DNA from: Hormiphora californensis
Taxonomy: Eukaryota > Animalia > Ctenophora
Assembly (NCBI GenBank): GCA_020137815.1
Contig: CM035361.1
Location: 1,674,001 to 1,738,000, forward strand
DNA: 64,000 nucleotides
Reading direction: 5' to 3'
Part shown: positions 1,446 through 62,647 of the stretch, piece after piece
How positions within the stretch are numbered: position 1 is the stretch's first letter
Layout of the letters: every line of letters begins with the position of its first letter
Program-made: the position numbers and the translations under genes
Notes under the pieces: model-generated
What the model saw: the letters and a program-made list of their open reading frames with translations, nothing else
The model's database searches: none
What the model was told of the DNA's origin: nothing

Positions 1446-4400
1446 CTCTCTCTCTCTTTCTCTCTCACCCGCCCCCCTCTCTCTCTCTCTCCCCTGACCC
1501 CAGCATCCTCTCACTCTCTCCAGGTCTTGCTAGCCTCAGCGTCTATCCCTGGTAACCCTCTCACTAAGGCCCGTGCCAATGGATCTCTCAACATTCTATC
1601 TGATGTTATACCAGAACACAGCCAGGGCTCAGCGGACCCAAAACGAGATTTACAGAGACACAAGGTAACGAATTGTAAACTCAGTTTTATCAAACTGAGG
1701 CCTGAGCTAGTCCTATTTCTTCACTTCAGATCATACATTGTTCCGTGTTAACCAAAACATTGTTCCGTGGTAACCATGGTAACCATTGTAACCAATACAT
1801 TGTTCCATACAGTAACCGTGAATCACCCCTCTCTCAGGAGATCATTACCAAGGCGGTATCTGGATCCCTACTACTGCTGCTAAAACACTTCCGCGTTAAC
1901 CACATCCTACAGTTTGAGTTTGTGTGTCAGTACATGTTCTATGCTAACTGTATTCCACTCGTTCTAAAGTTTCTCAACCAGGTAATCCTTTAGAGTTCAG
2001 GACAGGGGGAGTGGGGACTTTATTATTTAGTTCGAGACAGGGGGCCTTTATATTACTAATCCTTTAGAATTAGGGGCAAGGGGTCTTTATTACTAACTAC
2101 TGATACCTCGCAGGAGGGGGGGGGCTATCTCGCTAGATTATATGACTTCGCAGTTTAATCCACTGATTGTTCCAGGACATGAACGCTTTCGTTACTGCTG
2201 ACAACAATATTCCAATGCAAGAGTTCCCCATCTGCCTGTTCTATGTTCCCGAACCCCAGGTTGGTTCAACCAATGTTCCGTGGTAACCATGGTAACCAAT
2301 ACAATATTCCGTGGTAACCATGGTAATCCATACAATGTTGCGTGGTAGTAACCATGGTAACCAAAACATGGTTCCATGGTAACTGCTGTTTTCCTGGGTT
2401 ATCACTTATCACTATCCACTACTAATCAGTGATGAGTCTATCTATCTATCTAGAAACAAACACCCGTCTAACAAACACCCCTCTCTCAGCCCAGTAGAGT
2501 GATCTCTGAAGATGGAGAAGAGTCAACTGTTGGTCCTGTCTGCTGGAGAAACATGTTCAGTACTATAAACATGCTGAGGTAATTACTGCAATTAATTAGT
2601 TCAGCACAACTAACATGATGTGGTAATTAGGCAATTAATTAATCCATCACAACACGCATGTTGAATTGTGGTTATTATCCAGTTAATTAGTCAACCCCCC
2701 TCTCTCCACAGAATACTACAAAAGTTTACCAAGTGGAGGGCTCCCAGAGTTATAATGCTGAACGTTTTCAAAAGCCCGCCGATACTGAAGAAAACTCTCA
2801 AGGTAGATATGACACCTCTAGACTCATCTTAGATTCATCTTATCTAGACATCATGACATGGTGGCATTTGTTGACATATTTAAAGAATGTCCAATTATCA
2901 TTATTTTACCCCGATCTAACGGGCAAAACCCTTTCTCCCGAGCACCCTGGTAAATCGATAGTACGTACGATACTTCGTAATGATAGAATCCTCAACACTG
3001 CTATTAAGGGTACGCTAACCAAAAATTTTTTTCGAGTGCAGGGAAATCTCTCACCGTAGGGTTGTAGGCCATACCAAGGAGACCTCAAATATGTAATTTT
3101 AGCCCTTAAGTCGAATTCATATTTTTGCTACAGCTGTTTAAAATATGTCCTGTAAATACGTTTTTGGCATCTCAAAAAAAAATTTTAAAAGATAGGAGCA
3201 TGAAAATTTGGGGATTTGAAGAGGACATGAAGGTGAATAACCACAAAAATTTTTTTTGCAATCCGAGCTGATTTCCGCTCCTGAGATGGATTTCTTTTTT
3301 TCCACTTTAACGCCCTTTTTGGAAAAGTTCCGAAAACATGTGAAAGCTGTAAATTGGTGAAAAGTTGCGTCTAACGATTATCTAAGTGGCCATAAATTTT
3401 GGGCGTGTCCTTATTTGAGATAAGCTGTACAGAGTTTTTTTTGTGAAAGCCATCATTTCAGAAATAAATAAATTCCCTGTATCTCAAAAACGACTGATCG
3501 TAGAGACCTGAGACTATGCTTAAACGATTCAGAAGGTCCGATTTTGGGGGGGTCTTCTGAGAGACATTTTGCTCCTACTTCAACCGTTTTTGCTGTAATT
3601 GCGAAAAACAAATTCTATGAAAAGGGCAAAAGCTAAAATCCAATATCCTGTAATTAGGGAATTTTAGCTAAGAAAGGACCGAACCTATGGAAAAATGTGT
3701 AACAAGCTAATTCCTTCACTATTTGGTCCATATGGGTCCCTATAATCACCAAAAACAAAATCACAAAAAATCCACGATGGCGAAGATGGGTTTTTGTTTT
3801 TCGCAATTACAGCAAAAACGGTTGAAGTAGGAGCAAAATGTCTCTCAGAAGACCCCCCCAAAATCAGACCTTCTGAATCGTTTAAGCATAGTCTCAGGTC
3901 TCTACGATCAGTCGTTTTTGAGATACAGGGAATTTATTTATTTCTGAAATGATGGCTTTCACAAAAAAAACTCTGTACAGCTTATCTCAAATAAGGACAC
4001 GCCCAAAATTTATGGCCACTTAGATAATCGTTAGACGCAACTTTTCACCAATTTACAGCTTTCACATGTTTTCGGAACTTTTCCAAAAAGGGCGTTAAAG
4101 TGGAAAAAAAGAAATCCATCTCAGGACCGGAAATCAGCTCGGATTGCAAAAAAAATTTTTGTGGTTATTCACCTTCATGTCCTCTTCAAATCCCCAAATT
4201 TTCATGCTCCTATCTTTTAAAAATTTTTTTTGAGATGCCAAAAACGTATTTACAGGACATATTTTAAACAGCTGTAGCAAAAATATGAATTCGACTTAAG
4301 GGCTAAAATTACATATTTGAGGTCTCCTTGGTATGGCCTACAACCCTACGGTGAGAGATTTCCCTGCACTCGAAAAAATTTTTTGGTTAGCGTACCCTTA

Positions 4401-7158
4401 AAGCTCTATTATTATAGTTCCATACGTTCTCTGCTAGGTATCATCTTTCATTTGTAATGCTGCAGAGGGGTATCTGCTTTCATCCTAACTCTCTATCCAC
4501 CCTCTCACTGTATATCTGCTGTCAGGGCATAGTAATTGTGTGATAGTGTTACACCAGCTCTCCCACTATCTACCCTCCCCTCCTCGATCATGTCATGTCC
4601 CCTCCTGTTACTCCTTGAACATTATCTGCATACCCTGTAGGACTGTTATATTCCGTTACATGTTATCCTGTTATAGGACCATTATTTTCCCTGCTCTTCA
4701 ATATATTGTTACACTTTTAGCCTTTACGCTATGTTGTGATAAGAGTTTCCGTGCTCCAATCTCTGTAACTTACGTCATTTCAGCAATGCCATCACATAAT
4801 TGAGCTTACTTTAATAGGTTTCACTGCTAGTTGTGACGGCCAGTTGTCTCTATCTCTATTCTCTCGCTAGTCGCTAGTTGTGACGGCTTTCTGCACTCTC
4901 AGATTCTATACATACCATGTTTAGTACTCAAGGTTTAGTTTTGTTACTTTTGATTTTTGAGTTGAGTCCATTCCAAATTACAAATCTTGGTCCTCAACAC
5001 AGCCGTTTCGTCTCAAGTTAAAAGTGAAAATCTGGCCAGAAAATACATCTTAAAATACATATGATATGGCTCAATAAACAATAGATGGTGAAATAGTTGG
5101 ATGACGTATAGCTAATAGCGAACTGAGCTTGAGATGTTGGAATTCACTCATATCACACTACAAAATTGCACTTCCTAAATAATCCCATTATTAAAACAGA
5201 GAAGTAGATGACCAGGGTATTTACTAAACTTTAAGATACGAAATATTCAGGAACGTATTATAACCACTTCCGCAGGTGTCACACCCAATGGTGCAGTTAT
5301 ACGTGCTAAAATTGTTCAAGGGACAGGCACGGTACATGGGGAAGAATTGGAGGAAAGCCAATATGCGAATCATGAGTGCAATATACCAACACGTTAGACA
5401 CAGGTTAGTGTTCAGGATAGAAAGAATCCTTGGGAGTTTAGACTTTTACAATTTACTCAATCTTTGATAATTGAATATATTTAGAAAAAACTGTTTTTAG
5501 GTTATTGGATGATTGGGCGTATGGCAGTGATCTTGATACTCGTCAGTGGGAGACACCACATGAGGAACAACAGCTGAAACAAACCATCCAACATTACATG
5601 GGTGTGTCTCACCAAATTGACACCAAAATTTCAAACTCGGAGAATTTCAAAAAAAAATATATCATCTGAAAGCGGGTAAAGGACTGATCATTTCGGTATG
5701 TCGCGTCAGTTTAATTGATTATTAATTAATTAATTATTAATTAATTAGCGACCGTAACATTGGTAACGACCGTAACGTTTCGGTCGTTACAGTGTATTTT
5801 ATTTAAAATTACACATAAAATGGTCGTAACGACCGTAACGTAACGGTCGTTACATATGTAACGACTGTAACGTAACGGTCGTTACATTTGTAACGACTGT
5901 AACGTTACGGTCGTTACATTTGAAACGACCGTAACGTTTTACCACCGTAATGTTACGGTCGTTGCCTAAAATGACCGTATTTTGTAACGACCGTAACGTT
6001 ACGGTCGTTACAAATGTAACGACCGTAACGTTTCGGTCGTTACATTTGTAACGACCGTAACGTTTCGGTCGTTACATTTGTAACGACCGTTACGTTACGG
6101 TTGCTGTTACGGTCGTTACAAATGTTACATCTCCAGATTGTTCAGGCAGCCACGGCCATACTTTTTGGACTAAGGCTTTAGAATTCAGACAGGAGAAAGT
6201 ACTCAGTCACAGCTACCGCTGAGTACCAGTTTCAACTTCGTACGATAACTACAACCGATTCTATGATCGTTCAAAAATGCGTTACGGTCGTTACGGTCGT
6301 TACGTCAACGCCAAAAAAAGGCATTTTTTGGCATATTATGCATCATAATTCAGCTCAGTGATGCATAATTATCATAATATTTAGTAATTCAGTAGTTCAG
6401 ACATTTTCTGACAGTTTGGTACCAAAATTAACAAAATTGGCCAATGTTTAGGTGGTCTACGGACCTGTACAAAATTTCCAAACTCGAGGTGTCAATTTGG
6501 TGAGACACACCCACATGGGTATACTGGGCTATACTCCTTCATAAAACTAACTATGTATTACCCATGCTCCTTCATCAAACTAACCATCGCCTCTGCTCCT
6601 TCATAAAACTAACCATCGCCCCTGCTCCTTCATAAAACTAACCATCGACCCTGGTCCTTCATAAAACTAATCATCGCCCCTACTCCTTCATGAAACTAAC
6701 CATCGTGCCCTACTCCTTGTTAAAACTAACCATCGACCCTGGTCCTTCATAAAACAAACCATTACCCCTGCTCCTTCATAAAACTAACCATCGACCCTGG
6801 CCCTTCATAAAACAAACCATCGCCTCTGCTCCTTCATAAAACTAACCATCGCCCCCTGCTCCTTCATAAAACTAACCACTCTGCTGACCCACCAGGTATG
6901 TGGTATAAAGACCTCTACTCAGAGACGATCCCCTACCCACCGCACCACATTGACGACGAACACATAACAACTGATGTTGATGAGTTCATTGCTAGTGTAC
7001 ATGTTGAAATGCCTCGAGACTTCCACGAAAACTGGGAGGAGTGGGTGCAGAAGGAGGTCATTGACACTCAACATGATTGGGATGCACTACTTAAAAGTTT
7101 TGATAAAGGAGTAGATTTTGGAGAGAATTACAACAGTCATGATAATGAACTACATTAG
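1..7158 (+). CDS. STRIP1: Striatin-interacting protein (STRIP1/2, FAM40/Far11), 3' part; multi-exon, 5' end outside window
   Basis: GT-AG exons ~<1-129, 232-382, 1524-1664, 1838-1981, 2176-2259, 2490-2578, 2712-2802, 5276-5403, 5501-5601, 6896-7158. They splice to motifs VGLPHSIQE, RHKEIITKAVSGSLLLLLKHFRVNHILQFE, FYANCIPLVLKFLNQ, CWRNMFSTINMLRILQKFTKW, QLYVLKLFKGQARYMGKNWRKANMRIMSAIYQHVRHRLLDDWAYG, collinear with the human STRIP1 C-terminus as I recall it. Confidence 0.95.
613..686 (-). tRNA. tRNA-like gene, anticodon TGT (Thr), probably a pseudogene or SINE head
   Basis: Reverse complement GGCGAGG TA GCTC AATAGGTTA GAGC A ATGTA CATGTAA TGCAG AGGTT GTCGG TTCGAGC CCGGC CCTCGCC A folds as a cloverleaf with A/B boxes and is followed by a TTTTT Pol III terminator. 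Position 33 is A rather than U and the anticodon stem has a mismatch. Confidence 0.7.
840..1135. repeat. Intronic minisatellite (~31 bp, agatatatcttgtagatcacacacttgtag)
   Basis: Several near-identical tandem units are visible directly. Confidence 0.85.
3008..4397. mobile_element. Non-autonomous foldback DNA transposon with ~600-bp TIRs and TTAA TSD (Kolobok-like)
   Basis: TTAA|GGGTACGCTAACC...GGTTAGCGTACCC|TTAA. Arms ~3008-3612 and ~3793-4397 are nearly identical inverted copies around a ~180-bp spacer. Purine termini with TTAA fit Kolobok better than piggyBac (CCC termini). Confidence 0.85.
5600..6512. mobile_element. MITE with perfect 25-bp TIRs, 4-bp TSD (ACAT) and internal palindromic minisatellite; inserted at a STRIP1 exon end
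   Basis: ACAT|GGGTGTGTCTCACCAAATTGACACC...GGTGTCAATTTGGTGAGACACACCC|ACAT. Interior has repeated GTAACGACCGTAACGTTACGGTCGTTAC units. Confidence 0.9.
6530..6880. repeat. Intronic minisatellite (~30 bp, ctccttcataaaactaaccatcgcccctg)
   Basis: About 12 tandem units. Confidence 0.9.
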
Positions 7159-8035
7159 CCGTAGTATTATGCACTATGCTGCAGGGACATCACACACACA
7201 CATCACCCACACACATGATATTGATCAAGCCTGAACTTGACATATTAATTGAATTACAACAGTTAGCCGGAATTATATATAATATGTGTTTTGTGACAAA
7301 ATAAATCGTAGCTCAAAAGTATATAAAACTCCTAAATTCGGAAGGTTCAAACACAGAACCTCACATTTCTCTCTCACTAAGAGACGTTCCAGAATTATGT
7401 ACGCCATACTATGTGTATGTTCAAATTTGTGAATTCACCAACAACGGAATAACCCAATTAAAAGTTGTAGCGGATTAGACTGTCCATTTCTCTTTGCCGC
7501 TCTCTGTGTGACGTGTGTGCCCTGTAAAATTTGTGGAATTTTGATTGCGATCTGGGATTGTGTTTAATATATTATTAAAGCCATGATATATCATGTATTA
7601 AATAGTTTGAGATCATTTTTAACAAGCAGCTATACCCTGGAGTTTTGTTATTCCCCCTGCAAGTACCACCCCGCCCCCCCCCCCCACTGTTCAGTATCCA
7701 CCTTTACTATAACCTGGAGTGTTGTTATTCCCTCTGCAAGTGTCACCTCTCCCCAATAACTATCTCTACCCCGGTCCCCGGTATTATTATTGCAACTGCA
7801 AAGAACTCTCCCACTACCCCGATGATAATGAACTCTATTCCCCCACTAACATACCTCGATATATCTAGCCATGTTATAACATGACCTCAACTCTATGTGC
7901 AATCTGTCTCATAGTGCCCCCACTAACATCCCTCCATATATCTAGCCATAACATGACCTCATAACATGATGTGCCATCTGCCTCATAGTGCCCCCCACTA
8001 ACATACCTCCATGTAATATCTAGCCATGTTATAAC

Positions 8036-8368
8036 ATGACGTCAACTCTATGTGCCATCTGCAGAGAGGGGTTCCTGCCAAAACAGACGGTCGTTAATGC
8101 CAATGGAGTCCAGTGGCACCCTCAGTGCTTCGTCTGTGTTCAGGTAAATACAAATAATTTATGATAATAATTCATAATGTTCAGATATTATTATATTACA
8201 TATTATATATACTATGCAAAATATATTATGTAATATCATTTTTATACTCTTCATTTTTGTCTCGTAAACTTTTTTCTGATGTGTGTGACAGTAGCAGGGC
8301 GCCTCATTAATCATCGGATAGCTATTAGAAGAACTTTCTCTCTCGGTGTCTCAGTCTCTCTCTCTCTA

Positions 8369-8567: not shown

Positions 8568-9465
8568 ATCTCTCTCTCCCTCTCTCTCTCCGATCCAGTG
8601 CCAAGAACACTTGTGTGGTTCACTAGAAATACACGCAGACAATCATTATCCATTGTGGTGATCCATGTTGTATAATCCCATGGGGCTATAATAATAATAA
8701 TTGCTGCATATTTATATTGGTGCAGTCGGACCCCGATTTACTGGGATGCTTCAGGGGGAAGAGGGTTTTGCCCGGTAAATCGGGGTCCGAAACTAAAAAG
8801 GTGACACTTCCTCGCAGTTGAACAACTTAAACTGCTGCAGCTCTATTTTTAGATACCACCCTCTCCTCGCCCCCCAAAACGAATAAATCTGCCCCTGTTT
8901 AATCACTAGACAAAGTACCCTGCCCCCGCTATTTCTACCATTTTTCTACCTTTTTATAACAGGTTACATAATCCCCCCCTTTTACTAACCCCACCTATAA
9001 TATCAATATTATTTTTTCAGTGTCTGCAGCCATTTCCAGAGGGCCTATTTTTCGAGCACGAAGGACGGAAGTACTGCCAGACAGATTATGAATCTCTTTT
9101 TGCACCTATCTGCCATGAATGTGGTCAATATATTATAGGTAAATGGGGGATGTGGTCAATATATTATAGGTAAATGGGGGATGTGGTCAATACATTATAG
9201 GTAAATGGGGGATGGGGTTAATACATTATAGGTAAATGGGGGATGGGGTTATAAAGGACTTTTGAGAGCGGGAAAAAGTGAAAATGGTCAGAGAGTTATA
9301 CTTTAGTACTACCTACATCAAGTTTCTATAATTCTGTTTTGGTGTAATGAGTAATTGACGGGTTGTAGTACACAATAGGAAAGATTTTCCGGTTGGTCCT
9401 TCATAACACGCCCCTCGGTGAGATCCATATTACAACATGAGTGTGTGAAGTGTGAAGTGTGTGTG

Positions 9466-10082: not shown

Positions 10083-11033
10083 TCTCTCAGACACAATATA
10101 GGTGGGTATGTGAGGTATATAATATTTATTATTTATGGAGAATATTTTGGCCTTTTCTACGGAAGCCCCCACTTTGAACTCCAATTTCCTATTTATATAG
10201 CTGGGGTGATCAAGGTCCTATTGTGTAATAATAACACCAATCGTACCTCAATACTTTCAATTTCACTCTCTTTCTCTCCCACTCAGTAAATAATATCCCT
10301 CCTAATCCCCTCTCCTTATTCCTCTCCTCCTCCTCCTTACCCCTCTCCTCCTCCCCTCCTAACTCCTCTCATAACCCCTCCTCCCCCTCCTAACTCCCCT
10401 CCTAACTCCTCCCATTCCCTTCCTAACCCCTCTCCTCCTCCCCCTCTCCTAACCCCTCCTCCCTTCCTAACCCCCGCCTCCAACCCCTCTCCCCCTGCCT
10501 AACCCTCCCCCACCCCTTCCTAACCCCCCCTTAACCCTTCCTCCTAACCCCTCCTCCACCCCCTCTAACCCCTCCTCCCCTTAAAAACCCCCCTCCTCCC
10601 CCCTAACCCCTCTTCTCCTCCCCTTCTTCCCCCCTAACCCTCCTGCTCCAACCCCCCCTACCCCCCTCCCCTTTTAAGACCCTTCCTTCCCAACCTCAAG
10701 CTCCAATCCTGTTCCATAAAACCCCTTTCGTCTGCTCTTAAAAAAATTTTAAATCCCCCCCTTTTTCCCCTTTTTTTCCCCCCCCAAAAAATTTTTTTCC
10801 CCCCAAATTTTTTTTTTTTTTTTTTAAAAAAAATTTTTTTTCCCCCCTTTAAAATTTTCCCCCTATTTTTTTTTCCCCTTTTTTTTCCCCCCCCCAAAAC
10901 CCCCTCCCCCTCCCCCCCTTTTTTTTTTCCCCCCCTTTTTTTTTTCCCTTTTTTTCCCCTTCCCCCCTCCCCTTTCCCCCCTTTCCCCCTCCCCCTTTTC
11001 CCCCCCTTTTTTTTCCCCCCTTTTTTTTTTTAA

Positions 11034-11069
<36 letters not shown>

Positions 11070-11074
11070 CCCCC

Positions 11075-11108
<34 letters not shown>

Positions 11109-11182
11109 CCCCGGCCCAAAAAAAACCCCCCCCCCCCCCCCCCCCAAAAAAAACCCCCCCCCCCCCCCCCCCAAACCCCCCC

Positions 11183-11250
<68 letters not shown>

Positions 11251-12947
11251 CCCACCCCCCCCCCCCCCCCCCCCCCCCCCCCTTTTTCCCCCCCCCCCCC
11301 CAAAAAAAAGGGCCCCCCCCGGGGGCCCCCGGGGGCCCCGAAGCCCCCCCGGCCCCCCCCAAAAAAAAAAAACCCCCCCTTTCCCCCCGGGGCCCCCCAA
11401 AAAAAAAAATTCCCCTTTTTTCCCCAAACCCCCCCCCCCGGTTAACCCCCCCCCTTTTTGGGAAAAAAATTTTTTTTTAAAAAAACCCCCCCAAAAAAAA
11501 CCCCCAAAAAACCCCCCCCCGGAAAAAAAAAATTTTCCCCAAAAAAAACCCCCCAAAAAAACCCCAATTAATCCCCCAAACCCCCAAAAAAACCCCCCCC
11601 CCAAACTTTTTTTTAAAATTTAAACCCCCCCCCCCCCCAAAAAAAAAAACCCCCCCCAAAAAAAACCCCAAAAACCCCAATTTCCCCGGGGGGCCCCCCC
11701 CCAAAAAACGAAAAAGGGCCCCTTTCCCCCCAAAAACCCCCCCCCAAAACCCCAAAACCCCAAACTTTTTTTAAAACCCCCCAAAAAAAACCCCCCTTTA
11801 AAAAAAACCCCCAAAAAAACCCCCCCCCCCCAAAAAAGGGGCCCCCCCTTTTTCCCAAATTTTTTTTTTTAAAAAAACCCCCCGGCCCCCCCCCAAAAAC
11901 CCCCTTTTTTTTTTTTTAAAAAAGGGGTTTTTTTTCCCCCCCTTTTCAAAAAAAAACCCCCCCCCGGGGGTTTTTGGGGGAAAAACCCCCCCCCCCCCCG
12001 TTTTTCCTTTTTTTTCTTTTTAAACCCCCCCCTTTTTTTTTTTTCCCCCTTCTTTTCCCCCTTTTTTTTTCCCCCCCCCTTTTTTTCCCCTTTTTTTTTT
12101 CTTTTTTTTTTTTTTTCCCCTTTTTTAAAAAAAAATTTTTTTTTGTTTCTTTTTATTTTCCCTTTTCACCCCCCCCAATTTCCCCGGGTTTTTTCCCCCC
12201 TTTTTTTTTCCCCCTTTCTTTTTTTTTAAAATTTTTAAAGGGGGTTTTTTCTTTAATTTTTTCCCTTTTTTTAAAAATTTGGAAAAATTTTTTTTTTAAA
12301 AGGGGTTTTTTTTTTAAATTTTTTTAAAAAATTTTTTTTAAAAGGGGGTTTTTTTTGTTTTAGACTCCCAACTAATCCCCAACTAATCCCCAACATAACC
12401 CCAACTAATCCCCAACTAACCCCCACCAACCCCAACTAAGATCCACTAACCTCTCAACTAACCCAACCTAACTCCAACCTAACTAATCCCCAACTAACCC
12501 AACCTAACCCCAACACAACCCCAACCTAACTCCAACAGGGCGAGCCATACCATCCACACCATTTTGATTGTTTTGACTGTCACCGACCCCTGACTCACCA
12601 CGCCAAGGAGCTACACGCCCATCTCTTCTGTGCTCAGTGTTACGACACCAAGGAAATAAGGTACGTCAGGGCCCTAACTAGAGAAGACTCACTAGATCAG
12701 GGCCCTAACATCATGGAACTAGAGGGCCCTCATCTAACGTTATCTGAACTTAATTATCTTATTCAACAGTCAACATAGTTCATGGTTTCACTTTTTTCAT
12801 TCTTATTCTCTCTTTTTTTATACAGCTCTTTTTAATACAAGCTCTTTTTTATATGTCTAGTCGTTTCTAAACGTTCGCTTCCTTTCTCTTTGCATCATAA
12901 GTTGCAGGTGGATCTCTCTCTTTCTCTCTTTCTCTCCCTCTCTCTAG

Positions 12948-17362: not shown

Positions 17363-20300
17363 TCAGATGAATTGTTTCGTTGAGTTCTCTACACTAGGTG
17401 TGTTGACTGGGGAGCTGACTTGTGACGTCATTGGTAGGGTGGTATTTGGCTGACTTGAACCTGCAGGAGAGAAGGGGATAATGTTAGATTATTAGGAACA
17501 TTGTTTTGCTACTAAATCGTTAATTTAACAACCTTTTCATTGATTTATTCAGTTACAGTATTTTGACTGCAAGCAGCACTGTAACAGTGCTGCTTGCTTA
17601 GTGTTACCTGAGTTATTGGTGGGATGTTGTTTCCGTGTTTTTGAAGCGAACTTTAGCACTGATTTTCTGGCCACATCGTGGGCATTACGGGCAGGGTAGG
17701 GGAGACTTGCTGAGTTACGGCGCTTCTTGCTCCCTTCCTGGAACTATAGAATATAAAGCGGTGTGTTAATTAACTGAAAGAGGCAGCAACTGGACCCCCC
17801 AATCACATTCCCCGATTTTATTTATTAAAAAGCGTGCTCAGATTGGGCCGCTGTATGTATAATGGTTAGAGTCTATTTTTTATTTACGCACACGAGTTTG
17901 GGCCTGACCAGTTGAATAAAAATGAACTCTAGAACTTAGACTAAGAGGATCCGAGACACACGTCACATATCAAGTCCACTAGGTGACTTACCGCGTTGGT
18001 CACCTTCACGTGATCCATTGTGATTCGAACAAAGTTCTTCTTTTGCTGGGTAGGTGGTGTGGAAATATGGCTCTCACAAATACCTAGTGGACATAATGTA
18101 GTTAACAGGAACTGACCGAAACAATTAAACAACCAATCAGAACTCGTTATTTAGGTCACGTGACTGGTTAGCAGCCAATCAGGGACCAGTGTTCCCAGAT
18201 TCGGTCGGTTCCTGGTAGTTAATTATTTGATTTGTTGAGTAGGATGCAGTAAGAAATGATGTCATGTGACAGGTTTTTCTAATACACGAGATCACGACTG
18301 CTGCTGCAACTTACTTTTCTTGGTGTCCCCAGGTAGACCATTACTAATGTAACTGCCCCTCCTAGAATTGGTGGCACTAGTTGCTTTAGCTTCTGCGATC
18401 ATCTTCTGTACTTTGTGTGTTGAGGTTGAGTTCAGCATCTGATAACAGGGGATGTGGGTGTTAGTAGTGCAGTTTTGGATTAGCTGCAAACGAGGTCTGG
18501 GGTCTGAGAAGCAAGGGGGAGTCGAGAAGGGAGTTGGTCACGTGTACGCAGTGAAACAAGGGAGTAGGAGGAAGGGATGAGAAGGGCGGGGATGAGAATC
18601 AAGGGGGAGGGGGGAGGGGGTGTCGAGAAGGGCAGCCAGGGCATCTTACCTTTACGAAGTTATTGCTGACTGTATAACTTTGAGCTTGGCTTGAGTTTCC
18701 TGGACTCGACACGGTGGCGTCTATTAGTTGAGTCAGGGTTTTCTGTAGGATGGGAGGAATCAGGGTCAGTATAATTATCTATTTATCTTTTACTTTTTCC
18801 AGAGACGATTTTTCTCAGTTCAGCACCCCGCCACCCCGTTTTGATTCTCCGAATAATATTTAATTCTAATAAGTTACCTTTAGTTTGGGGTTCCTGTTTG
18901 GACTTCGTTTTCCCGCTGCAAACTCGAACAAGAACACCACGATACTAAGCGCCACTACGGGGGCAATGATAGCCATCGTACCAACAACGCTGAATACACT
19001 GATCTCAGACGAGCCTGGGAGGTGAGGAGGGATGAGGGACTAAGGACTTGGCCTGAGGAGTAAGGGGTGAGAGTAAGGACTAAGGGGTGAGAATGGATCG
19101 GATGATTTGTTGACTGTTGTGAAACCCTTGCTCAATTACTTCAGCCGTGTGATTTAAAAACAGCTGGATCATGTGTGTCTCTTGTACCTGGTTCAGTGCT
19201 GAGGGTACCATCACAAGGTCCACTGGCCCAATTCCTCCAACTTGGTAGGATTTCATTCTTCTCCTTCATTTGAATTAGTCCCTTGTTGATTATCTCTATA
19301 ATCGGACTCTCATCTGGTACCTGGGAGATATATAAATTATAGATTCTATAAATTATAGATTCTATAATGTGTTCGATCCCTCCTGTCGTTCCAGTGCTAT
19401 ATATTCTATAATATAGAATATCTGATTTGAGCTGTCAGAGCATTGGCCTGACAAGATTTGAGTACAGGGATACTTGTAGAAAACACTATATTACTGTTTT
19501 ACGCGGTAGTGCACTGGAACGACAGGAGGGATCGAACACATACGCACACTACACTGTTTTTGATTTGTTTGACCCTCTCTCCCCCTGTCAGGCCAATGCT
19601 CTGACCACAGTTCTCGTGCGCTCCGGAGAGAAATGAGAATAGGGTCAGGCCAATGCTCGGACAGCTCTCCCATCGTTTTAACAACACAAAATGTCTCCTT
19701 ACCGCAAATGCCAGCTCGTAACTGAGGATATTGGTTTTGGTGACTTTTAGCCCGCACGGTTTCTGGTTACTGGAGTAAGTTAGTGGGGCACTACCATACA
19801 GAAACACGTATCTACCGGTCCTGGCTTTCTCTATACCGTGTGTGAAATTATCTGCCTGGGAGGGGAATATCAATCAATTGCATTGTGGTGACTGGTGAAA
19901 ATAAATCAACTCTACTGTAAAGTCTACGGAGCTGGAGCTATTTTACAATCGTCAGAATGGCTTTGTCGACCCCTTACTCAACAAGAATGTCGAACTAATT
20001 GAAATTACCATTTTAGCATGTCGGTAAAGAGACTCGATCTCCCGATCACTAGTATTACTAAGCAGCATATCAGTCACTGTACCAGCCACTGTACCATAGG
20101 GCAGACCGGAATCTTTCAAATCGTGTATCGTCTCGAACTCCTGAAGAAGTTTAAGATGGTTATTGGTTAGGTGATGACTCATAATTGGCATGTTCCTTGC
20201 CTGTCAGCTCTCACACCGGGCCTTCGGCCCGGTGTGAGCTTACGCGAGCCCGAGGCGCTTAAAGTGCCGAACAGACAGACTGCACAGCATGGCAAACTCA

Positions 20301-23300
20301 TAATGAGTCTTGAGAACTACTTGAGATGGGTGTGTGGCAATTGTCAATTGATTAATCAACTAACCTTGTTAATTAAATTACCTTGTTGATTCTGGTGACG
20401 GTGAGATAAGCTGCCAAGTTAGCAGTGTAGAGGGAGATTAGGACGAGACAGATCAACCACCAGGCGGTAATCAGCACCCTGGTTGACCAGCACTTAGGTG
20501 TGGCATCAGGGGGTCCAACCTGTGGGGGGGGGGGGGTGTTACACTTGGGTGTGGCATCAGGGGGTCCAACCTGTGGGGGGGGGGGGGGGGGGGGTGGTGT
20601 TACACTTGGGGGTGGCATCAGGGGATTCGACCTAGGGGGGGGGGGGTGGTGTTACACTTGGGGGTGGCATCAGGGGGTCCAACCTGTGGGGGGGGGGGGG
20701 TGTTACACTTGGGTGTGGCATCTGGGGGTCCGACCTAGGGGGGGGGTGTTACACTTGGGGGACCAAGCTGTGGGGGAGGGTGTGTTACACTTGGGAGTGG
20801 CATCTGGGGGTCCAACCTGTGGGGGGGGGGGGTGTTACACTTGGGTGTGGCATCTGGGGGTCCAACCTAGGGGGGGGGTGTTACACTTGGGGTCCAACCT
20901 AGGGGGGGGGGTGTTACACTTGGGGGTGGCATCAGGGGATCCGACCTGTGGGGGCGGGGGTGTTACACTTGGGGGTGGCATCAGGGGGTCCAACCTGTGG
21001 GGGCGGGGGTGTTACACTTGGGGGTGGCATCAGGGGGTCCAACCTGTGGGGGCGGGGGTGTTACACTTGGGGGTGGCATCTGGGGGCCCAACCTGTGGGG
21101 GGGGGGGGGTGGTGTTACACTTGGGAGTGGCATCTGGGGGTCCAACCTGTGGGGGGGGGGGGGGTGTTACACTTGGGGGTGGCATCAGGGGGTCCAACCT
21201 GTGGGGGGAAGGGGTGTTACACTTGGGGGTGGCATCTGGGGGCCCAACCTGTGGGGGGAGGGTGTTACACTTGGGGTGGCATCAGGGGGTCCAACCTGTG
21301 GGGGGGGGGGGGGTGTTACACTTGGGGGTGGCATCAGGGGGTCCGACCTGTGGGGGGAGGGGGGGTGTGAAGATATCAGGAATATCCAATATTTTTTACT
21401 GACAAAAGATGCGTGAGTACAAATTGTCAGGCACTCGCCACTCAGGCATCCTTTGCAAAAAGAGACACCCATGGGTTACCTGCAAGAAGGAACAAATAAC
21501 CAGCCAGACTGTGTTCATCAGATTCAGACTCTTCATTTCGTAGTGGATGCCTTGTTGATCATCAAACGGACACCCCTTAACTGCGAAATCACCACTTAAA
21601 CTTGCCTGCAGGTGGGTGGGAACAATTAGTAACGATGGGACTTGCAGTGGGGTCTGTAGGTTGAAATAATAAACCAAAACCGTCCAAATCCCTGTACTGC
21701 TTAACCTGCTAAACCTGACTTCATTATCACAGCAGCATTAGCAGTGGTACAGAGATTCGACCATATAATCTAACCAGTTATACCTCACACTGTTCACATT
21801 TGCAGCACAACAGCTTCTGTCTGGTGCCCCCATAGAACCCATAGGGACTGAACTGGTCAAATACGTAGATGAGGGCACAGAATATACACCCAGCAAGGAC
21901 AATAGCAATCCATAGCTCCCGGCTGAAGGGGGTGGATATTAGTCGGATTAGTGGATATTAGTTGGGGTGGGAGATATTACTTGGGAGTTGGGGGTAGGGG
22001 GATGGATATCATAATATTATTATTTGGGGGTGAATATTAGTTGGGAGTTGGGGATGGGGGGTATTATTTGGGGTGGGGATATTAGTCAGGGGGGGGGGGT
22101 GGATATCATAATATATTAGTTGGGGTGGAGTCTAGTTGGGGTTGGGGGATATTAGTTGGGGTGGGGGATGGTGGTGTTTCGAACATTGTCACTTGTCAGG
22201 TGGGTGGATATTAGTGTGAGAATGAAGCAGAGAGATAATTAATGTTATATGTAGTTATCTCTCTCTGGTAATTAGGATAAATATCATACACACATATTCG
22301 GTCAACATATGTAATATGACATCTTTATGAAGGATTCTCACAACAAGTTAGATTGAGTAGGCAGATGTGGTTGTGTAAACTTGTGAGTGACACACAGTCT
22401 TATCCGACTTTGTGTAGTTAACACTGCATTTCATAAAGCGAAATCGCTCTGTGAGAGTTCGGCAGATCATTGTAGATATATCTACCTTGGTGACATTGAT
22501 ACCTGAGTGAGATCGACGTCCCGTGCAACTGAGATCGATCTCACATACTAGAATAGGTTGTAATGGATCCAAATATCTACCTGAATGGCCGGAGGAAGAA
22601 GAAAGAATCACTTTTGAACATGGTAAGGGGGTCAAATTCACCATCAGCGCCTGCTGGAGGTCCCTCTTGTCTAGCCATCACTACACCACCTGAGGGGGTA
22701 CATATGGATCATCAGTGTTTGTTTGTCTTGGGGAACCTGGGTGTTTTTGTGAGTCGGTCCCTTAGGAACCTGGAAAGTGGAACTAATTACATTAATTAAA
22801 ATAATCATCAATTACCTGTTAGTAAGGGGACTGTAAAATCTACAACTTGTTCCCTCGCGGTGTTGATTCCAAATGCCACGATGCCAATATCGATTTCTTT
22901 CCTGACCAGCATCCCAATCAATCCATCCCATTCTGCCTCACCTGTTCCTTCAACCTGGAGAGTTTGACAAATTAGGGAGGTTAAATAGGTGCAAAACGTT
23001 CAGAGACCGGGGAGGTTGTTAACCCTTTGAGGCCCATAACGATTGGCTAAACAACTTTCCAATTTTTTGTGGAGGTAGTTATGAGAATGGGAGCTGGGGA
23101 CAATGTTGTTCTTACCGGACTGCCGAATTTTCCGTTAGGCTCTTCAACAAATTCATAACTAAATGAAAACTTCTCAGCCAATTTTTCAATGATATCGATA
23201 CTAAGCCCCTCGTAACATTTCATCTTATTCTCCAGTTGGCAGGATTTGTGACCGTCTTGTCTGTACCGGTAGGTGACAAAGGGGGCATCCTCAACTATTC

Positions 23301-25389
23301 CTACCTACAGGAGAGAGAGAACATGAATCACTATCAGTGGTTTTACCATATTAAACCTTGCCCATGGCACTTATCTGACGATCCAGGATCAGACTTTGTC
23401 AACGGTACAGCTTGGTCACTGGTTAGGCGTCGCACTGACCCTTTCTCGCTTTGAGCAGAGTTAGGAGATTGGTCAGGCGTATCGCGCCATTTGTGTACCT
23501 TCAGGTGGCTAGCTATGTTGTCCTTGATGTTTGTCTCTCCTCCAAAGAACTGGGGTTTCCTAACTATAGCAACTCCCTGACTCTCCTCAAACTGTCCAAT
23601 ATCCATGGGGGCACCTAGAGAGAGAAAGGTTGGGGGAGAGGGGGCACCTAGTGGGATAGAGGTTGGGGGAGAGGGGCACCATGTGGGGGCACCTAGAGGA
23701 GCGGGGGTACTACAGCGCTGGACACTAGTTCTTCTTTAAGTCGCAAAACAAAGCAGCCTCTAAGATTCAGCAGCAGTGTGTCTAAGATTGATAAAATTTG
23801 GCAGCATAATACGTGACAGCACTATCTAAAATGTGTCTAAGATTGATAAGATTAATAATGTGACAGCACTATTTAAAATGATTTACAACTCACCGGTTCG
23901 GACGTTCACCACAGTATAAATATCTCGTTTAGGTCCTCCGCTCCAGGAGAATGAGATGTTTCTAAAACTGACCCCATCAAACTCTATCTCTCTGAGTGCA
24001 CGTGCTATCTTAATCCCTCCCACTCGATCGAAACTCCCCAGTTGTAGATACTCTCGGTCGGGTCCGCCCGGCACTGCTGTTGGGTTACAGGAGACATTGG
24101 CATCACCGAAATCCAGCTCACCCTGTGGGATTGGGGAAAATTAGGGGATTATATTAGGTCTTCAATTGGTATTATATAGCTGTGGCCTAAATTTCATGGA
24201 ACTCCTTATTAGCTGCAATCATACCCAACTTTCTCTCCCTCTACCTGTTTATCAAGATGGTCTAGTGCCATTATTAGTGCCATTGTACTATCATACACCT
24301 TAGCAGAGAGTGTATCTACCCGCTGTATCCTGACATTTAGTGCATCCTCCATTGCCGTCCTGTAGCGTGCGTAATGTTACAGTTGAATGCAGTATGACAA
24401 TGTAGTTAGTGGTACACGGTTCGATAATCGATAATTAAATAGCTAAAGCAAATTAACTTATTGTTGGGACTTAATTCATTAGCTAGATGTATATGGGTAA
24501 GAAAGTATAAATTGGAAGTGAGAACTGACCGTAAGTGAAGATACTCCTCCGTTTCATCGTTTGATATCTGACTGATTAGAAGAAGACCGTCATAGAACAC
24601 TGGCTGCTTGTTCTGGTGGTTATCCTAGATAGGAGGAGGAGCGTCAAAGGTAATGGAAAATTTTGTGGCTCACAAACTGGATTTTATTTCATAATATCGT
24701 GCTCTGTGAGGGTTCGACAGATCTCAAATGGGATAGTGAAGAATGATATCCCTCTTCAATTTTTCATACTGAATGACTGTGATCTTCATATTGAAACTCA
24801 CCAAATCCCAGCTCTATGGATGAGTGAATGCTGTTTTGACCCCCCCCCCTTCCATGACCCATGCAAACTCACCAAATCCTGACTGGCACTACTTCCACTA
24901 ATCCAGAGGTACTCAGGTCCAATAAGGCCTGCTGCATCAGCTTGCTCCAGTATTGGTCTCACAAACTGAACCGATACAAACATAATGAACACTCTGATTC
25001 TTTGTTCCTTTAGTTGCTTCATCTTGGATCTGTAGAGAGGTGGGTGGATGGAGTTAACTGAGGAAAAGGTTTAAGATCCTGATTGCCAAGTCAAGTCGGG
25101 CAGTTGCATCTAGCCTAGAAGGAAGTGGGGACTGGGGCTTTGTGGTGTGGGAGAGGGTGTCGGGAGTTTCATAAACTATTATTCCTGTAGTTGGTGACCC
25201 AGTTCAATTTTAAAGCTGCCACGTCATATCTTACCCGAGATCCAGTTTGGTAGGGAACATGGTGCTGGCAGGAATTATAACATACTGTCGGATCACAACT
25301 CCTAGCTGATGGGCCCGTACCTCGAAATTAGATCGGAGCCCCAATCCTGTAGAGGGAAAGGGAGAGAGAGAGAGAAAGGGAGAGAGAGA

Positions 25390-26330: not shown

Positions 26331-29300
26331 AGGGGGGGGGTTTTTAAATTTTGTTTAAAGGGCCACCCCCCATTTTTTTCCAGCAAAAATAGGGGGGTAG
26401 GGGGGTTTTAAAGGGGCAGTTAATAATGAGGGGGGGTTTATTGGGGTTTAAGGGATTGGGGTAACCCCTTATTTGTAAACTCAAACCATATATATATGGG
26501 CTCACGGGCACAACCCCTCCTTGGGGGTAAGGGGTGAAATTTTTTTTCGAGAAGTCTCCACCCCTAATCAACCAGGAAACGGGGTTGGTTGGCGCTTAAA
26601 AGCCTTGAAAGGCGTTTCTGGGGTTATTTCGGGACAAACCAAAAAATATACTTTGGGTCACCCCATAAACCCAAAATGTAAAACAAAAAAACTTTAAAAA
26701 ACCAAAAAAACCCCAAAACACCTCTAAAACTCAACTATTAAAATCACAAAAAACCAACTGATTTCTTTCAACCAAGCCACAAAACACTTTAACCCTTTCA
26801 CAAACCGTGCAACTTATTAATATATTCCCGAAAACCATGAAAAAAGCAAACTCTAAATTTTTGGGGTATTCCCCCCCAAAAGGTTAAAAAACAAGGTCAA
26901 ACTATAAAACCACAAAATCCACTTACAAACAAAAAAACCAAAAAAACCCCTTTTAACACAACAAGGGGCCAACGGGACTTTTTTTTAAAAAACTTTAAAA
27001 AAATAAAGAAAGTTTTTTTTTCTTTGTTTTTTTTTTAAAACCCCCCCCCCCTTGGGGGTTTCGGGGGGGGTGGTTTTTTACAACTTTTGCGCTTCCCCTG
27101 TTCAGTCATTTCTGTTTTGTTTTGTGTGTAAGGTGTAAACACGAGGGGAAACACTTTTTTTTACTTATATCCCCTACCCCTATTATTCTCACGCCCCCCC
27201 CCGCGGAAGCGGGTGCATTTTCCCGTGAAAAAGGGTCGCCGGAGGGGGGGAGTGATATGTGCACTCGCGGTATATATTGGGCATCACGTGACACACATCA
27301 ATCACCATCAATGACCTGGATCTTTCAACACACATTTTTGTTTCATTCGTGATCAGCAATTCCATTGTTTTGCGTTGTCGAACAAGGCAAGTTTTGCGTG
27401 TGTGCGATGCGTCGAATAGGGTTAATTAAGATCACTGCAATTTGCATAATCAGATTAGTGTTTTGCAGGCGTGTGAAGGGAGTGTAACACACCATGTGAG
27501 TGTATATAAACCGGGTATGAGAGATAAATTTTAGTAATTTTCAACCATGGATTATTTAAGGAAATACTGTTACAGTTGGACCCCCCGATTAAAACCCGGG
27601 AAAAACCCCTTGGGGGAAAGGGGTTTTGTCCGTTAAATGGGGTTTTCCGCTAAATCGGGGGGTTAAAATTGTTAATTTTCTATATTGGGGGAAATTTTGG
27701 GGTCCGTTAAATCGGGGTGCCCCTAAACGGGGGTCCGCCCGTAATTACCAAATTTTTAAAATTTACTAAAGCATCGCTGGTCCAACTATCAAACATTAGT
27801 GCGTTCTAGATCCTATTTTAGGTTTATGATCATCTAAGGGTTCAATTTCGCAAGAAACTGGTATCTGGAACAGACCTGATTGAAAACCGGGACGGTTTTT
27901 TCCCAAAACGAAGCCCCGGGAAAGCTAAAAACCTTACAAAACCACTAACCAAGATTTGAACCCCTTTTTTTCCCTACTGGACCGAAAGGTTTTTTTTTAA
28001 AACTAATTCTCGAATTTTTTTTGGGGGGTGATACAGGTAAAGGGTGCGGGTTTGTGGGCCCCCCATCATTTTTTTGGGGAAATAGGTTTGGTTTGGGGGA
28101 AATCAATAGGAGAAGGACACAAAACCCAATAATCCCTTAAGGTTTATTTAAAACTTTTTTTTTTACCCCCAATTTTTCCTATTTTTTCTAGAAAATTTCT
28201 ATTACAAAACTTTTATATCTAAAAAAGGGTGTTTGTCCCAGGCTGAGACCCTATTCACCCGGGGAAAATAATGATTTTCACCAAACTTCAAAACACCCCT
28301 AAGTGAGTGCCCCCCAAAACCCATTTTTCCCAAAAGGATTCAATCAAATCTCAGAAAATTAGGCTAAAATTTATAAAACAAAAGATTTTGCTGCTGGACC
28401 CAAAATTTTGGCAAATCTCCAATCAAATGCCCCGGGGGAAAAGGGGCCTTTGGTCCCCCCGTGGATTGGTTCTCTCTCTTCTCAGCCCAAAAATAAAAAA
28501 CCAGTCCATGTTTGCGTGGGGAGCTTTGGGTTTCCCCAAACGGGGTCCGGGAAAGGGTTTAAAAAATTTTCTGGTACAAAAAGGTTGTCAAAAAAAACAG
28601 AAGAAAAAAGGGAGAAGAGAGAGAAGAGAGAGAGAGAAAGAAGAGGATTACGGCGGATAAAACCCCTTTGTCTCCCCCGTCAAAAGAAAATGGGGGGATC
28701 TCTCTTCCTCTCCTCTGACTCCCTTTTTCCCCCCCCTTTGGGGGGCCCCTCCTCCCCTTCTGTTTTTTTCCTCTTTTCCTTGTCTTCTCTCTCTTCTCTC
28801 TTCTTTTCCTCTCTCCTCCCCCTTTCCTTCTTTCTCTTCTCTCGCCCCTCTTTGCAAAAGAAAAGAGAGGAAAAAGATAAATTTTTTAATTTTACTCGTA
28901 AGTTTTTATCTCATTTTTTAGAAAAATTAGGGCCCCCCCGAAACGAGGGTTATTTTAAAAAGAGCATAATTTTATTTTTAAAATTTTCACCCCACCTTAA
29001 ATTGAAGTTCCTATTAGAAGGTTTTAAAAATTAGCCAATAAATCGCTCTGAACTTTGCAAAATAAAGACAAAACTGAAAATCATCCGGGTGTGGATATAA
29101 CATCGGCCCCCCCCCATTTCCCGGGGAGAATAAATTTCCCCCCGATGTGGGAAATTAAGGGTATTTAAAACCGATTACCGGGAAACCCCCCCGATTTTAC
29201 CGGAAAAAAACCCTTTTTCCCCCAAGATCCCGGAAATGGGGGTCCGCCTGCCGCTGTAAACACATTTTGACCATTAACCAAGAATTTTTACTCGCCCCCA

Positions 29301-29800
29301 AAACCCAAATAATTGTCTGAAATGCCAATCTTTACAAAGAGCGTTTTTAAAAAAAAAAGTTTTGTCAAGAATAGACAAAATGGAAAGAAGAGGATCAAAA
29401 ATGTCGAATTTATTATCATGAAAATTTGGAACAACACTCGATTGCCTCTCTTTTAAACTCAGGGCACTGATAAATGCTCGTATTGCAATGTGCTCTCAAG
29501 AACCCAATTCCTACTTAAGGACTTTTTAGGACTATTCAAAAGGAAATAACGGAATATAAAAAAAATAAACAACACTCAACAGAAATGCCCGCCTAGATAA
29601 ATTAAAAAACTACGATTTTTGGGGGAAAAGACAAATGAAAAATTGTAAAGGGACAAATAAAGGGAAAAAAGGAGGGATTTTTTAAAATTTTTTTGGGGGG
29701 GGGGCCCCTTTAAAAAAATTTTTAAAAAATCTCCCTTTTCCCCCAAAAAATTTGGCAATTGTCTAATTACAAAAAACCTTTTAGGGGGGGGGGGGTGGGG
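26330..29800. other. Largely low-quality, homopolymer-inflated assembly segment
   Basis: Garbled copies of the pogo MITE (27573-27740, 29100-29250) show run-length corruption. The iGluR exon at 26330 degrades abruptly. Confidence 0.75.
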
Positions 29801-34654: not shown

Positions 34655-34830
34655 GGTGGCGTGAAATGGAACTTAGAATTCTGTTTGGTGGCGTGAAATG
34701 GAAGTTAGAATTCTGTTGAGTGGCGTGAAATGGAAGTTGGAATTCTGTTGAGTGGCGTGAAATGGAAGTTGGAATTCTGTTGAGTGGCGTGAAATGGAAG
34801 TTAGAATTCTGTTATGTGGCGTGAAATGGG
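34655..34830. repeat. Minisatellite (~33 bp, gtggcgtgaaatggaagttagaattctgtt..)
   Basis: About 5.5 tandem units. Confidence 0.9.
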
Positions 34831-38367: not shown

Positions 38368-39448
38368 AATGTGGCAGATGCAGTCAGAGCTTGTTGAGTT
38401 AACAAGTCAGACAGAATCTAAATCTGCAGGCAATAGACTCAAACTTTTTAAAAAAAGACCCGAATTTTTTACCATTCTTTATTCAAAATATGTAACTGAA
38501 TGGTTTCTAATTTAATCTTTATTCATCACCTGACTTGATTAATTTATGTGTATCAGTACATAATCACATAATTGTAGTAGAAATTATTACTTCGTTATAT
38601 TTATCTGTACGATTTATTACTTAATTACTACTAAGCTAAAAATGCTAACCAACTCCCCCTTCCCCTCAGCTTATTTCTTTATTTCATGCTAACTCAACTT
38701 CCTATCCCCTTCAGCCTATTTCTTCATTGTATGCAAGTTCACAGACAGATTCTACATTCCAACCGCAAGGTACAGTTTATAAATTTATCTCAATAATAAT
38801 AAATATTTTAGTTTTTAGATAAACAATAAAGGTTGCTGTTCATTCCCAGCTACTATCATGGGAACAAGAACTTCTACTTCCAGAATTTGATACTCCCATC
38901 TGAATTCGATTTTCTAAAAGATAATAATAATTGACTCTCTTTTCTCTAAGATAGTAATATTACTTGTCCCTTACTTTTGCATTTTAGCCGTGACGTCATC
39001 CCTTTTCAGTGATACCACGCTACAAGAATCAATGGACAAGACATCGTGACAACTTTGGTAGATGTGGTGTGTGATCTCCAGCCCGGACTCTGACCACATC
39101 ATCTCCCTACTGTCTGGCGCCGCGACCCCATCTGATCGCACTGTCGCCATAAAGTCCCTATATTGTTTATTCAGGTCGCTATATGGGTCATTTTATAAGC
39201 AGAGAACTTTCTAGACTCTGATGGCTTTCACTTTTGAATATATGCAACTTTTTGAAAGTATGCCGGAACTCTTGAAGCCATTGTCAGGCCACTACTCTGA
39301 CAGTGAAGCCATATAATGGTTGACATGTTCCCAATCTGTCGCGGCTCTCACGACGGACAGCTTGTGTAGCATGGCAACCATTTGCAATTACTGAAACTCT
39401 TAATTATATTGGTAAATTATATTGCCTCCCTTTTCGGCCAGGCATGTA

Positions 39449-62022: not shown

Positions 62023-62647
62023 TGGGGGGGGTGCAGCCCCAAAAAAATTCAAACTTTTTCCGAAACCCAGGGTATGGTTGGTTTTTTTTGGTTTTTTTTG
62101 GTTGAAATTTCTTTGATTTTTTTTGGTCGTTTTTGATTTTTTTTGGTCGTTTTTGATTTTTTTTGGTCGTTTTTGATTTTTTTTGATCTTTTTTTGATTT
62201 TTTTTGATCGTTTTTGATTTTTTTTGAATTTTTTTTGAATTTTTTTGATCGTTTTTGAATTTTTATGATCGTTTTTGATTTTTTTTAATTGTTTAATGTT
62301 GAACAAAAAAGTTCAAAAAAAATCAAAAACGATCAAATAAAATCAAAAACGATCAAAAAAATTCAAAAAAATCAAAAACGATCAAAAAATTCAACAAAAA
62401 AATCAAAAACGATCAAAAAAAATAAAAAAAGATCAAAAAAAATCAAAAACGACCAAAAAAAATCAAAAAAGATCAAAAAAAATCAAAAACGACCAAAAAA
62501 AATAAAAAAAATCAAAAACGACCAAAAAAAATCAAAAAAGATCAAAAAAAATCAAAAACGACCAAAAAAAATCAAAAACGACCAAAAAAAATCAACACTT
62601 TTGAAAATCCAGGGTATGGTTGGTTTTTTTTGGGCTGCACCCCCCCC
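62023..62647. mobile_element. Second copy of the GGGGGTGCAGCCC foldback element
   Basis: Same ends and internal inverted microsatellite-like arrays as 52408-52988. Confidence 0.7.

Follow-up and report, generated by a model that had tools for sequence, protein, structure and literature searches.

A 'mirage' minisatellite of 17 acceptor copies beside the pore-loop exon of a ctenophore ionotropic glutamate receptor gene, with a modest excess of silent variants

The closest described systems are the 'mirages' of amphioxus, minisatellites whose tandem units run across an intron-exon boundary and whose extra copies lie within the intron. They were described in Adh3, in the globin genes BflGb6 and BflGb9, in troponin C and in PGBD5; unequal crossover probably accounts for their variation in length, and RT-PCR pointed to normal splicing of the genes (PMC3087553, PMC3902484). 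According to the globin paper, the cluster boundaries are exempt from homogenisation. A related case is the 37-bp VNTR in intron 7 of human F7, of which the first unit spans the exon-intron boundary and the further identical splice sites are silent (PMC1557585), and a third point of reference is the model of Rogers (cited in PMC3087553), in which introns are gained through the tandem duplication of AG/GT proto-splice sites. Our literature search, which included PMC8527503 and extended to few subscription papers, returned no report of a mirage in a ctenophore. Within the same scope we found no paper on silent-site bias or exon exchange in such repeats, and the original Adh3 paper, which lay beyond that scope, may discuss unit variation.

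We examined a window of 64,000 nucleotides from the ctenophore Hormiphora californensis, and detected an array of this kind on its minus strand, in an ionotropic glutamate receptor (iGluR) gene. The array lies between an upstream exon that ends in M2 (...SFLQ; 21480..21605, aligning colinearly with M2 in the closest homologues), with a phase-0 GT donor at 21479, and a 139-nt live exon that comprises the iGluR pore loop and M3 (20381..20519; Pfam and database match) and whose silent sites are highly polymorphic among contigs. Alignment of the units identified 18 acceptors, 17 intronic and one live, and TRF reported 17 copies with a period of 49. The 17 intronic copies and the C-tract of the live acceptor occupy 20520..21376 (TRF, unit alignment and DNA contigs), preceded by a unique 5' part of the intron (21377..21479). 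The intron measures 960 nt from the donor to the live AG and starts with about 100 unique bases, and 132 nt separate the donor from the AG of copy 1, which is likely the ancestral intron end.

Each unit consists of GTAAC, a C-tract, CAG or TAG and the first 28–29 bases of the exon, with a total length of 33–61 nt. The first exon-like bases of copies 1–9 are at 21347, 21295, 21248, 21198, 21146, 21092, 21043, 20994 and 20945, and those of copies 10–17 at 20898, 20866, 20816, 20767, 20734, 20683, 20631 and 20570, followed by the live exon at 20519. The AG is kept in all 17 copies and, across the 18 units, the acceptor is CAG in 14 and TAG in four. Fourteen of the 17 copies are full-length; a single nucleotide is missing from copy 2, and stretches inside copies 10 and 13 are deleted. 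Amino acids are changed in two full copies, copy 9 (20918..20966), with the missense variant VGSP, and copy 16 (20604..20655), with two missense variants (VESP) and a TAG acceptor. A previous reading of this DNA, made from the letters alone (hereafter the sequence-only reading), had described about 18 tandem acceptors of CAG or TAG type, two amino-acid-changing full copies, two internal deletions and one single-base deletion, and our alignment agrees with it on all these points.

As in amphioxus, the units are tandem and intronic, cross the intron-exon boundary and mostly carry an AG, and several loci per genome are affected; the unit length is inside the 10–72 bp quoted for Adh3. The BflGb6 mirage, like ours, combines an intron 3' end with an exon start, although it has 3–6 copies and our array 17. 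Turnover is attributed to unequal crossover in amphioxus, and the units described here likewise recombine, with seven pairs of sites violating the four-gamete test among the 14 full copies and the live unit; the units are thus mosaics, i.e. they turn over by recombination. Normal splicing was supported by RT-PCR in amphioxus, whereas in our case it is likely, judging by frame and loop length. The F7 repeat resembles the array in that its extra splice sites are potentially functional, and they are unused in F7. However, it duplicates a donor, of which the first is chosen by 5'-to-3' scanning, while here the last of 18 acceptors is required, a choice for which scanning from the donor gives no explanation. 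The model of Rogers shares with the array a unit that contains CAG/GT and an origin by local duplication, but it yields a new intron, whereas the array only lengthens an older one. The structure is therefore ordinary for the mirage class, and the silent footprint and apparent sharing with live alleles, which are not part of the amphioxus mirages as described in the text available to us, are part of the value of the locus.

The assignment of the host gene was supported by PF10613 (E 6.5e-9 and 6.8e-11) and by Lig_chan, PF00060 (E 6e-14 on 20376-20570). The M3 exon was identical (100% over 46 residues) to P0001, a database model with an 'sb' identifier; such identifiers we take to be Pleurobrachia bachei gene models. 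The identifier of P0001 was absent from the supplements of PMC6307864, and peptides of this iGluR gene were found in none of the 12 supplement files of that paper, where long alignment rows are stored incomplete, so that the cloned P. bachei receptor mRNAs may yet contain the junction. P0001 carries none of the sequence upstream of the live M3 exon, a gap in which a role of the array is conjectural, and longer matches to this model were mostly driven by its repeat-derived tail. The exons show a cysteine-rich M1-M2 loop, an early cysteine pair of the ligand-binding domain and the M3 gating motif, in which they resemble the ctenophore Epsilon receptors, for which PMC6307864, in the part consulted, describes a cysteine-rich M1-M2 loop. 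From these sequence features the gene is likely an Epsilon-type iGluR. The metagenome search recovered at least eight distant iGluR loci, with no close relative among the matches listed. At two of these distant loci (L001 and L004), inspection by eye points to an intron close to the position of the array-bearing one, which suggests that the intron is older than the array and was merely lengthened. As separate observations on the same gene, P0001 differs from the window at three residues close to an exon boundary in S2 (19850-20010, minus strand) and its tail matches a dispersed repeat, and two iGluR introns contain very high-copy short elements with inverted ends (19548-19685 and 20146-20329). 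The second insertion looks polymorphic, since contigs of both samples skip 20186-20346.

The array was recovered independently of the assembly in the DNA contigs. Joins between units were present in both samples, the join of copy 1 with the unique intron part was seen in three of the four runs (X1, X2 and X5), and array variants recurred in the contigs, namely ACT with CCA in X5 and TCC with TAG in X6. The count of 17 copies and the lengths of the C-tracts are values of the assembly, as no listed contig extends over the array or the complete live C-tract, and the reads were compared with stretches containing one unit; summed contig depth was rejected as a measure of copy number. The sequence-only reading had named an assembly artefact among the findings that would overturn it. 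Noisy long reads or collapsed haplotypes might indeed generate an array or its variants, and the window does contain two stretches of long homopolymer runs with a low-accuracy look (10771-12356 and 26344-29800, the second of which is entered by the 5' end of the iGluR gene). The unit-to-unit joins and the same variants in the contigs of both samples largely refute the doubt about existence and make this explanation barely credible. The array is real and present in two samples.

We then considered which acceptor is used. In translation, the acceptors of 16 of the 17 copies lead to a stop within 5 to 72 codons; for copy 1 (21320..21376), the first AG past the donor, the stop comes after 21 codons. 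Copy 17 (20543..20603) is the sole copy that keeps the frame open in the assembly, and its use would add 51 nt, or 17 residues, in agreement with the in-frame insertion that had been proposed for the nearest copy. The frame of copy 17 hangs on a run of 13 C, and contigs show run lengths of −3 to +1 that are unassignable to one copy. With the live acceptor, the pore-loop span between the M2 tryptophan and the M3 tyrosine comes to 39 residues in a count by eye, as opposed to 56 with copy 17. Among seven close homologues examined, two were off-pattern and the remaining five had a span of 39 (four) or 38 (one); from another anchor, 27 of the 28 measurable homologues (58 motif matches) fell at 38–39 and one at 47. 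Only the live acceptor matches the loop length of the close homologues. Frame and loop length together indicate that the spliceosome likely skips the copies and uses the last acceptor. The search for a transcript-derived model joining both exons found none, with no candidates for the M2 exon and one match among three for the M3 exon. Two further runs, X7 (another organism) and X8 (possibly RNA), yielded no matches to the gene, which for X8 carries no information on expression.

Some copies could nevertheless be used deliberately, copy 17 to lengthen the channel by 17 residues next to the Q/R/N site, or upstream copies as a poison splice that adjusts expression via NMD. Every copy has a C-tract and an AG, copy 17 is in frame, and a scan for the first AG would meet copy 1 just 132 nt from the donor. 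The early stops from 16 copies, the dependence of copy 17 on a C-run of a kind that varies among contigs and a span of 56 residues, far from that of the homologues, make such use improbable. Retention of the AG, which the sequence-only reading had taken as a non-neutral signal, is expected by chance (P 0.53–0.67, for 8–12 variable sites among 40–45), and we rejected it as a sign of selection. Because 16 of the 17 copies give early stops, selection at the protein level cannot act on their codons, and the other proposal of that reading, that the silent bias comes from use as alternative acceptors, fails for the same reason.

Recursive splicing is a further route by which the AG of a copy could be used, as the GT that follows would rebuild a donor (CAG/GT) and splicing onward to the live acceptor would yield a correct mRNA. 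The upstream exon terminates in CAG, and 16 of the 17 copies keep the GT of the exon start. The rebuilt donor, GTTGGA or GTCGGA, is a poor match to the usual donor consensus. Moreover, other letters open the exon in five of the six other acceptor mirages of the window, so in those the last acceptor is chosen without a recursive route, and we consider this explanation very improbable here.

The differences among copies were counted by codon position. The 14 full copies contained seven distinct variants, five silent and two missense. With an expected silent share of 0.26–0.29 (transition weights 1 to 5), five of seven corresponds to P 0.017–0.025, and six of nine, after adding the damaged copy 13, which additionally carries a first-base G>C change, to P 0.013–0.022. 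Counted per site, four of six variable sites were at third positions (P 0.056–0.079), and fourfold sites only gave P 0.018. Diversity among copies was 0.20 at third positions, compared with 0.02 at the other two. A loose end in X6 (one contig) showed an extra silent array variant, AAG>AAA, beside a copy with the missense TCC. This serine variant was found in the second sample too, and missense variants thus also persist in the array. The synonymous excess is modestly above chance and small, and the P values flatter it, since the pattern was chosen by eye and post hoc. The third-base variation that had been reported at V, G, P and T codons was recovered in the unit alignment, but the CCT/CCC difference does not vary among copies: at exon base 24, CCC is found in every copy retaining the codon and CCT in the live exon only. 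The statement that nearly all differences are synonymous holds as an excess of silent variants when variants are counted (P ~0.02), and falls short of significance when third-position sites are.

These numbers leave room for an ordinary mirage that was seeded once from one live allele and evolved neutrally, the silent excess being an accident of small numbers together with mutation at the edges of C-runs. The full copies hold only the seven variants, the total basis is 7–10 variants, several of them adjoin homopolymer runs, the P value by site is 0.056–0.079, and the pattern was picked from about ten such arrays in the window. The P value of about 0.02 by variant, the tenfold higher diversity at third than at other positions and the additional silent variant in the second sample argue against neutrality, and we regard this explanation as rather unlikely, though it deserves serious weight.

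The live exon provided a second line of evidence. Among the differences listed, all 12 that could be placed in the live exon were silent, in 11 codons; the change at 20454 is silent only jointly with that at 20456, and contigs show equal depths for both. Another live allele and the window differed at 11 of 133 bases; if silent, these differences amount to about 0.25 per codon, which is close to the third-position diversity of the copies (0.20). Six of 11 and five of nine differences in the other live alleles were unplaced, differences within about 30 bases of piece ends are hidden, and the letters of these alleles at exon bases 3, 6, 12 and 21 are not displayed. ACA at base 21 is common to the live exon and copies 11, 14 and 17. 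Two contigs in X5 had an unaligned last letter at 20496, a position at which the exon of the window is unlike every copy, so this base varies in the live exon.

The ends of the contigs were informative about the identity of alleles and copies. In a 31-mer graph of the window, the private base at 20496 predicts that contigs of the window's live allele end at 20526, and for a live allele that equals any of the full copies the predicted end is 20520. The window's allele ended at 20526 in X2 and 20529 in X1, a second live allele ended at 20520 (X1, record 2) and 20519 (X2, record 8), and a different live allele in X6 (record 23) ended at 20520. Judging by these ends, two other live alleles likely agree with an array copy throughout their first 29 bases. 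The sharing, of whatever extent and direction, rests on base 24 and on the contig ends. Two distinct live alleles that each match a copy would count against the neutral explanation, although an array that simply descends from a single common live allele would fit the sharing as well. Thus the exchange with the live exon that had been postulated by the sequence-only reading gains indirect support from the mosaic units, the silent polymorphism of the live exon and the apparent identity of alleles and copies, with simple descent as a fitting alternative. Its further description of the copies as an 'archive of viable alleles' was overstated, as amino-acid changes or deletions affect five of the 17 copies and the second sample contains the serine variant as well. 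That reading also overlooked that the array belongs to a described class, the mirages, of which this window has many.

On balance we favour, with moderate confidence, an array that arose as a minisatellite from the intron-exon junction, is likely skipped by the spliceosome, and likely received its silent variants by exchange with the polymorphic live exon. The first duplication across the junction would have created a unit with its own branch-point-like TAAC, owing to which the last acceptor may have stayed usable. Misaligned crossover, conversion or slippage would then expand the array. Mispairing between the live exon on one haplotype and a copy on a different one would bring the sequence of a live allele into the array, and the entering variants would be silent because live alleles have already passed purifying selection. 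New mutations within the array would add the few missense changes and deletions, and selection would act on the live exon only, with the copies inheriting its footprint. The last acceptor is probably picked by pairing with the donor 139 nt downstream, as in exon definition.

About ten further junction-spanning repeats were identified in the window from our own reading of local repeats: in four the exon is supported by Pfam (two LIM and two weak WD40), two lie in the same iGluR gene and four were judged by eye. An acceptor mirage of three units precedes the first LIM exon (7840-8062, plus strand; Pfam LIM E 7e-8) of a gene that is presumably PINCH-like, and its far copy differs from the live exon by three silent and no missense changes over 27 coding bases. 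A donor mirage of four units follows the next LIM exon (9119-9249, plus strand), with one silent and two non-silent changes, and decays with distance from the live exon. The iGluR gene itself contains an acceptor duplication with three units (23607-23698, minus strand) and a donor duplication with two (24794-24879, minus strand). A WD40-like gene on the minus strand, with weak Pfam matches, has acceptor mirages of four (48724-49086) and two units (50281-50364), one unit being broken by a short inverted-repeat element that recurs near 59320. Finally, probable junction-spanning repeats, with exons and frames assigned by eye, were found at 2568-2653 (plus), 34655-34829 (minus), 38642-38728 (plus) and 59012-59197 (minus).

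Differences between copies and live exons in these other mirages were silent in four of seven cases in Pfam-supported frames and in seven of 13 in all frames. Against a null of 0.28 this corresponds to P 0.10 and 0.044, respectively. The proper null for comparing copies with a live exon is 0.44, as it takes silent change in the live lineage into account, and against it the values are P 0.37 and 0.33. We therefore rejected the other mirages as independent proof of exchange, and their failure to beat the proper null is a further point for the neutral explanation; they show that the class is common in the window, not that exchange is general. Other repeats of the window include about 11 copies of a 29-nt unit with a CTAAC branch-point-like motif (6534-6878, plus strand), an array that has its AG outside the unit and stops just ahead of a probable acceptor, and two similar long palindromes (52478-52931 and 62078-62595), each formed by a T-rich and then an A-rich 10-nt tandem array that face each other.

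The array likely brings ctenophores into the range of mirages, which are densely spaced here. In an animal with short introns, it is also a natural test case for the way in which a spliceosome selects the last among 18 nearly identical acceptors. Its silent-site footprint provides a simple test of exchange between intronic copies and an exon and, on the practical side, gene models can be disrupted by arrays of this kind. We tentatively raise a bolder possibility, less probable than the account that we favour, namely that the mirage is a two-way reservoir of alleles for the pore loop, which takes up, keeps and returns the sequence of live alleles. If so, the reservoir would raise silent diversity and would sometimes deliver missense or frameshift changes, and many live alleles would be preserved side by side on one chromosome, outlasting their residence in the exon. 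Given about ten arrays in 64 kb, ectopic exchange would then shape the evolution of exon ends across the genome, and past alleles could be read from the mirages.
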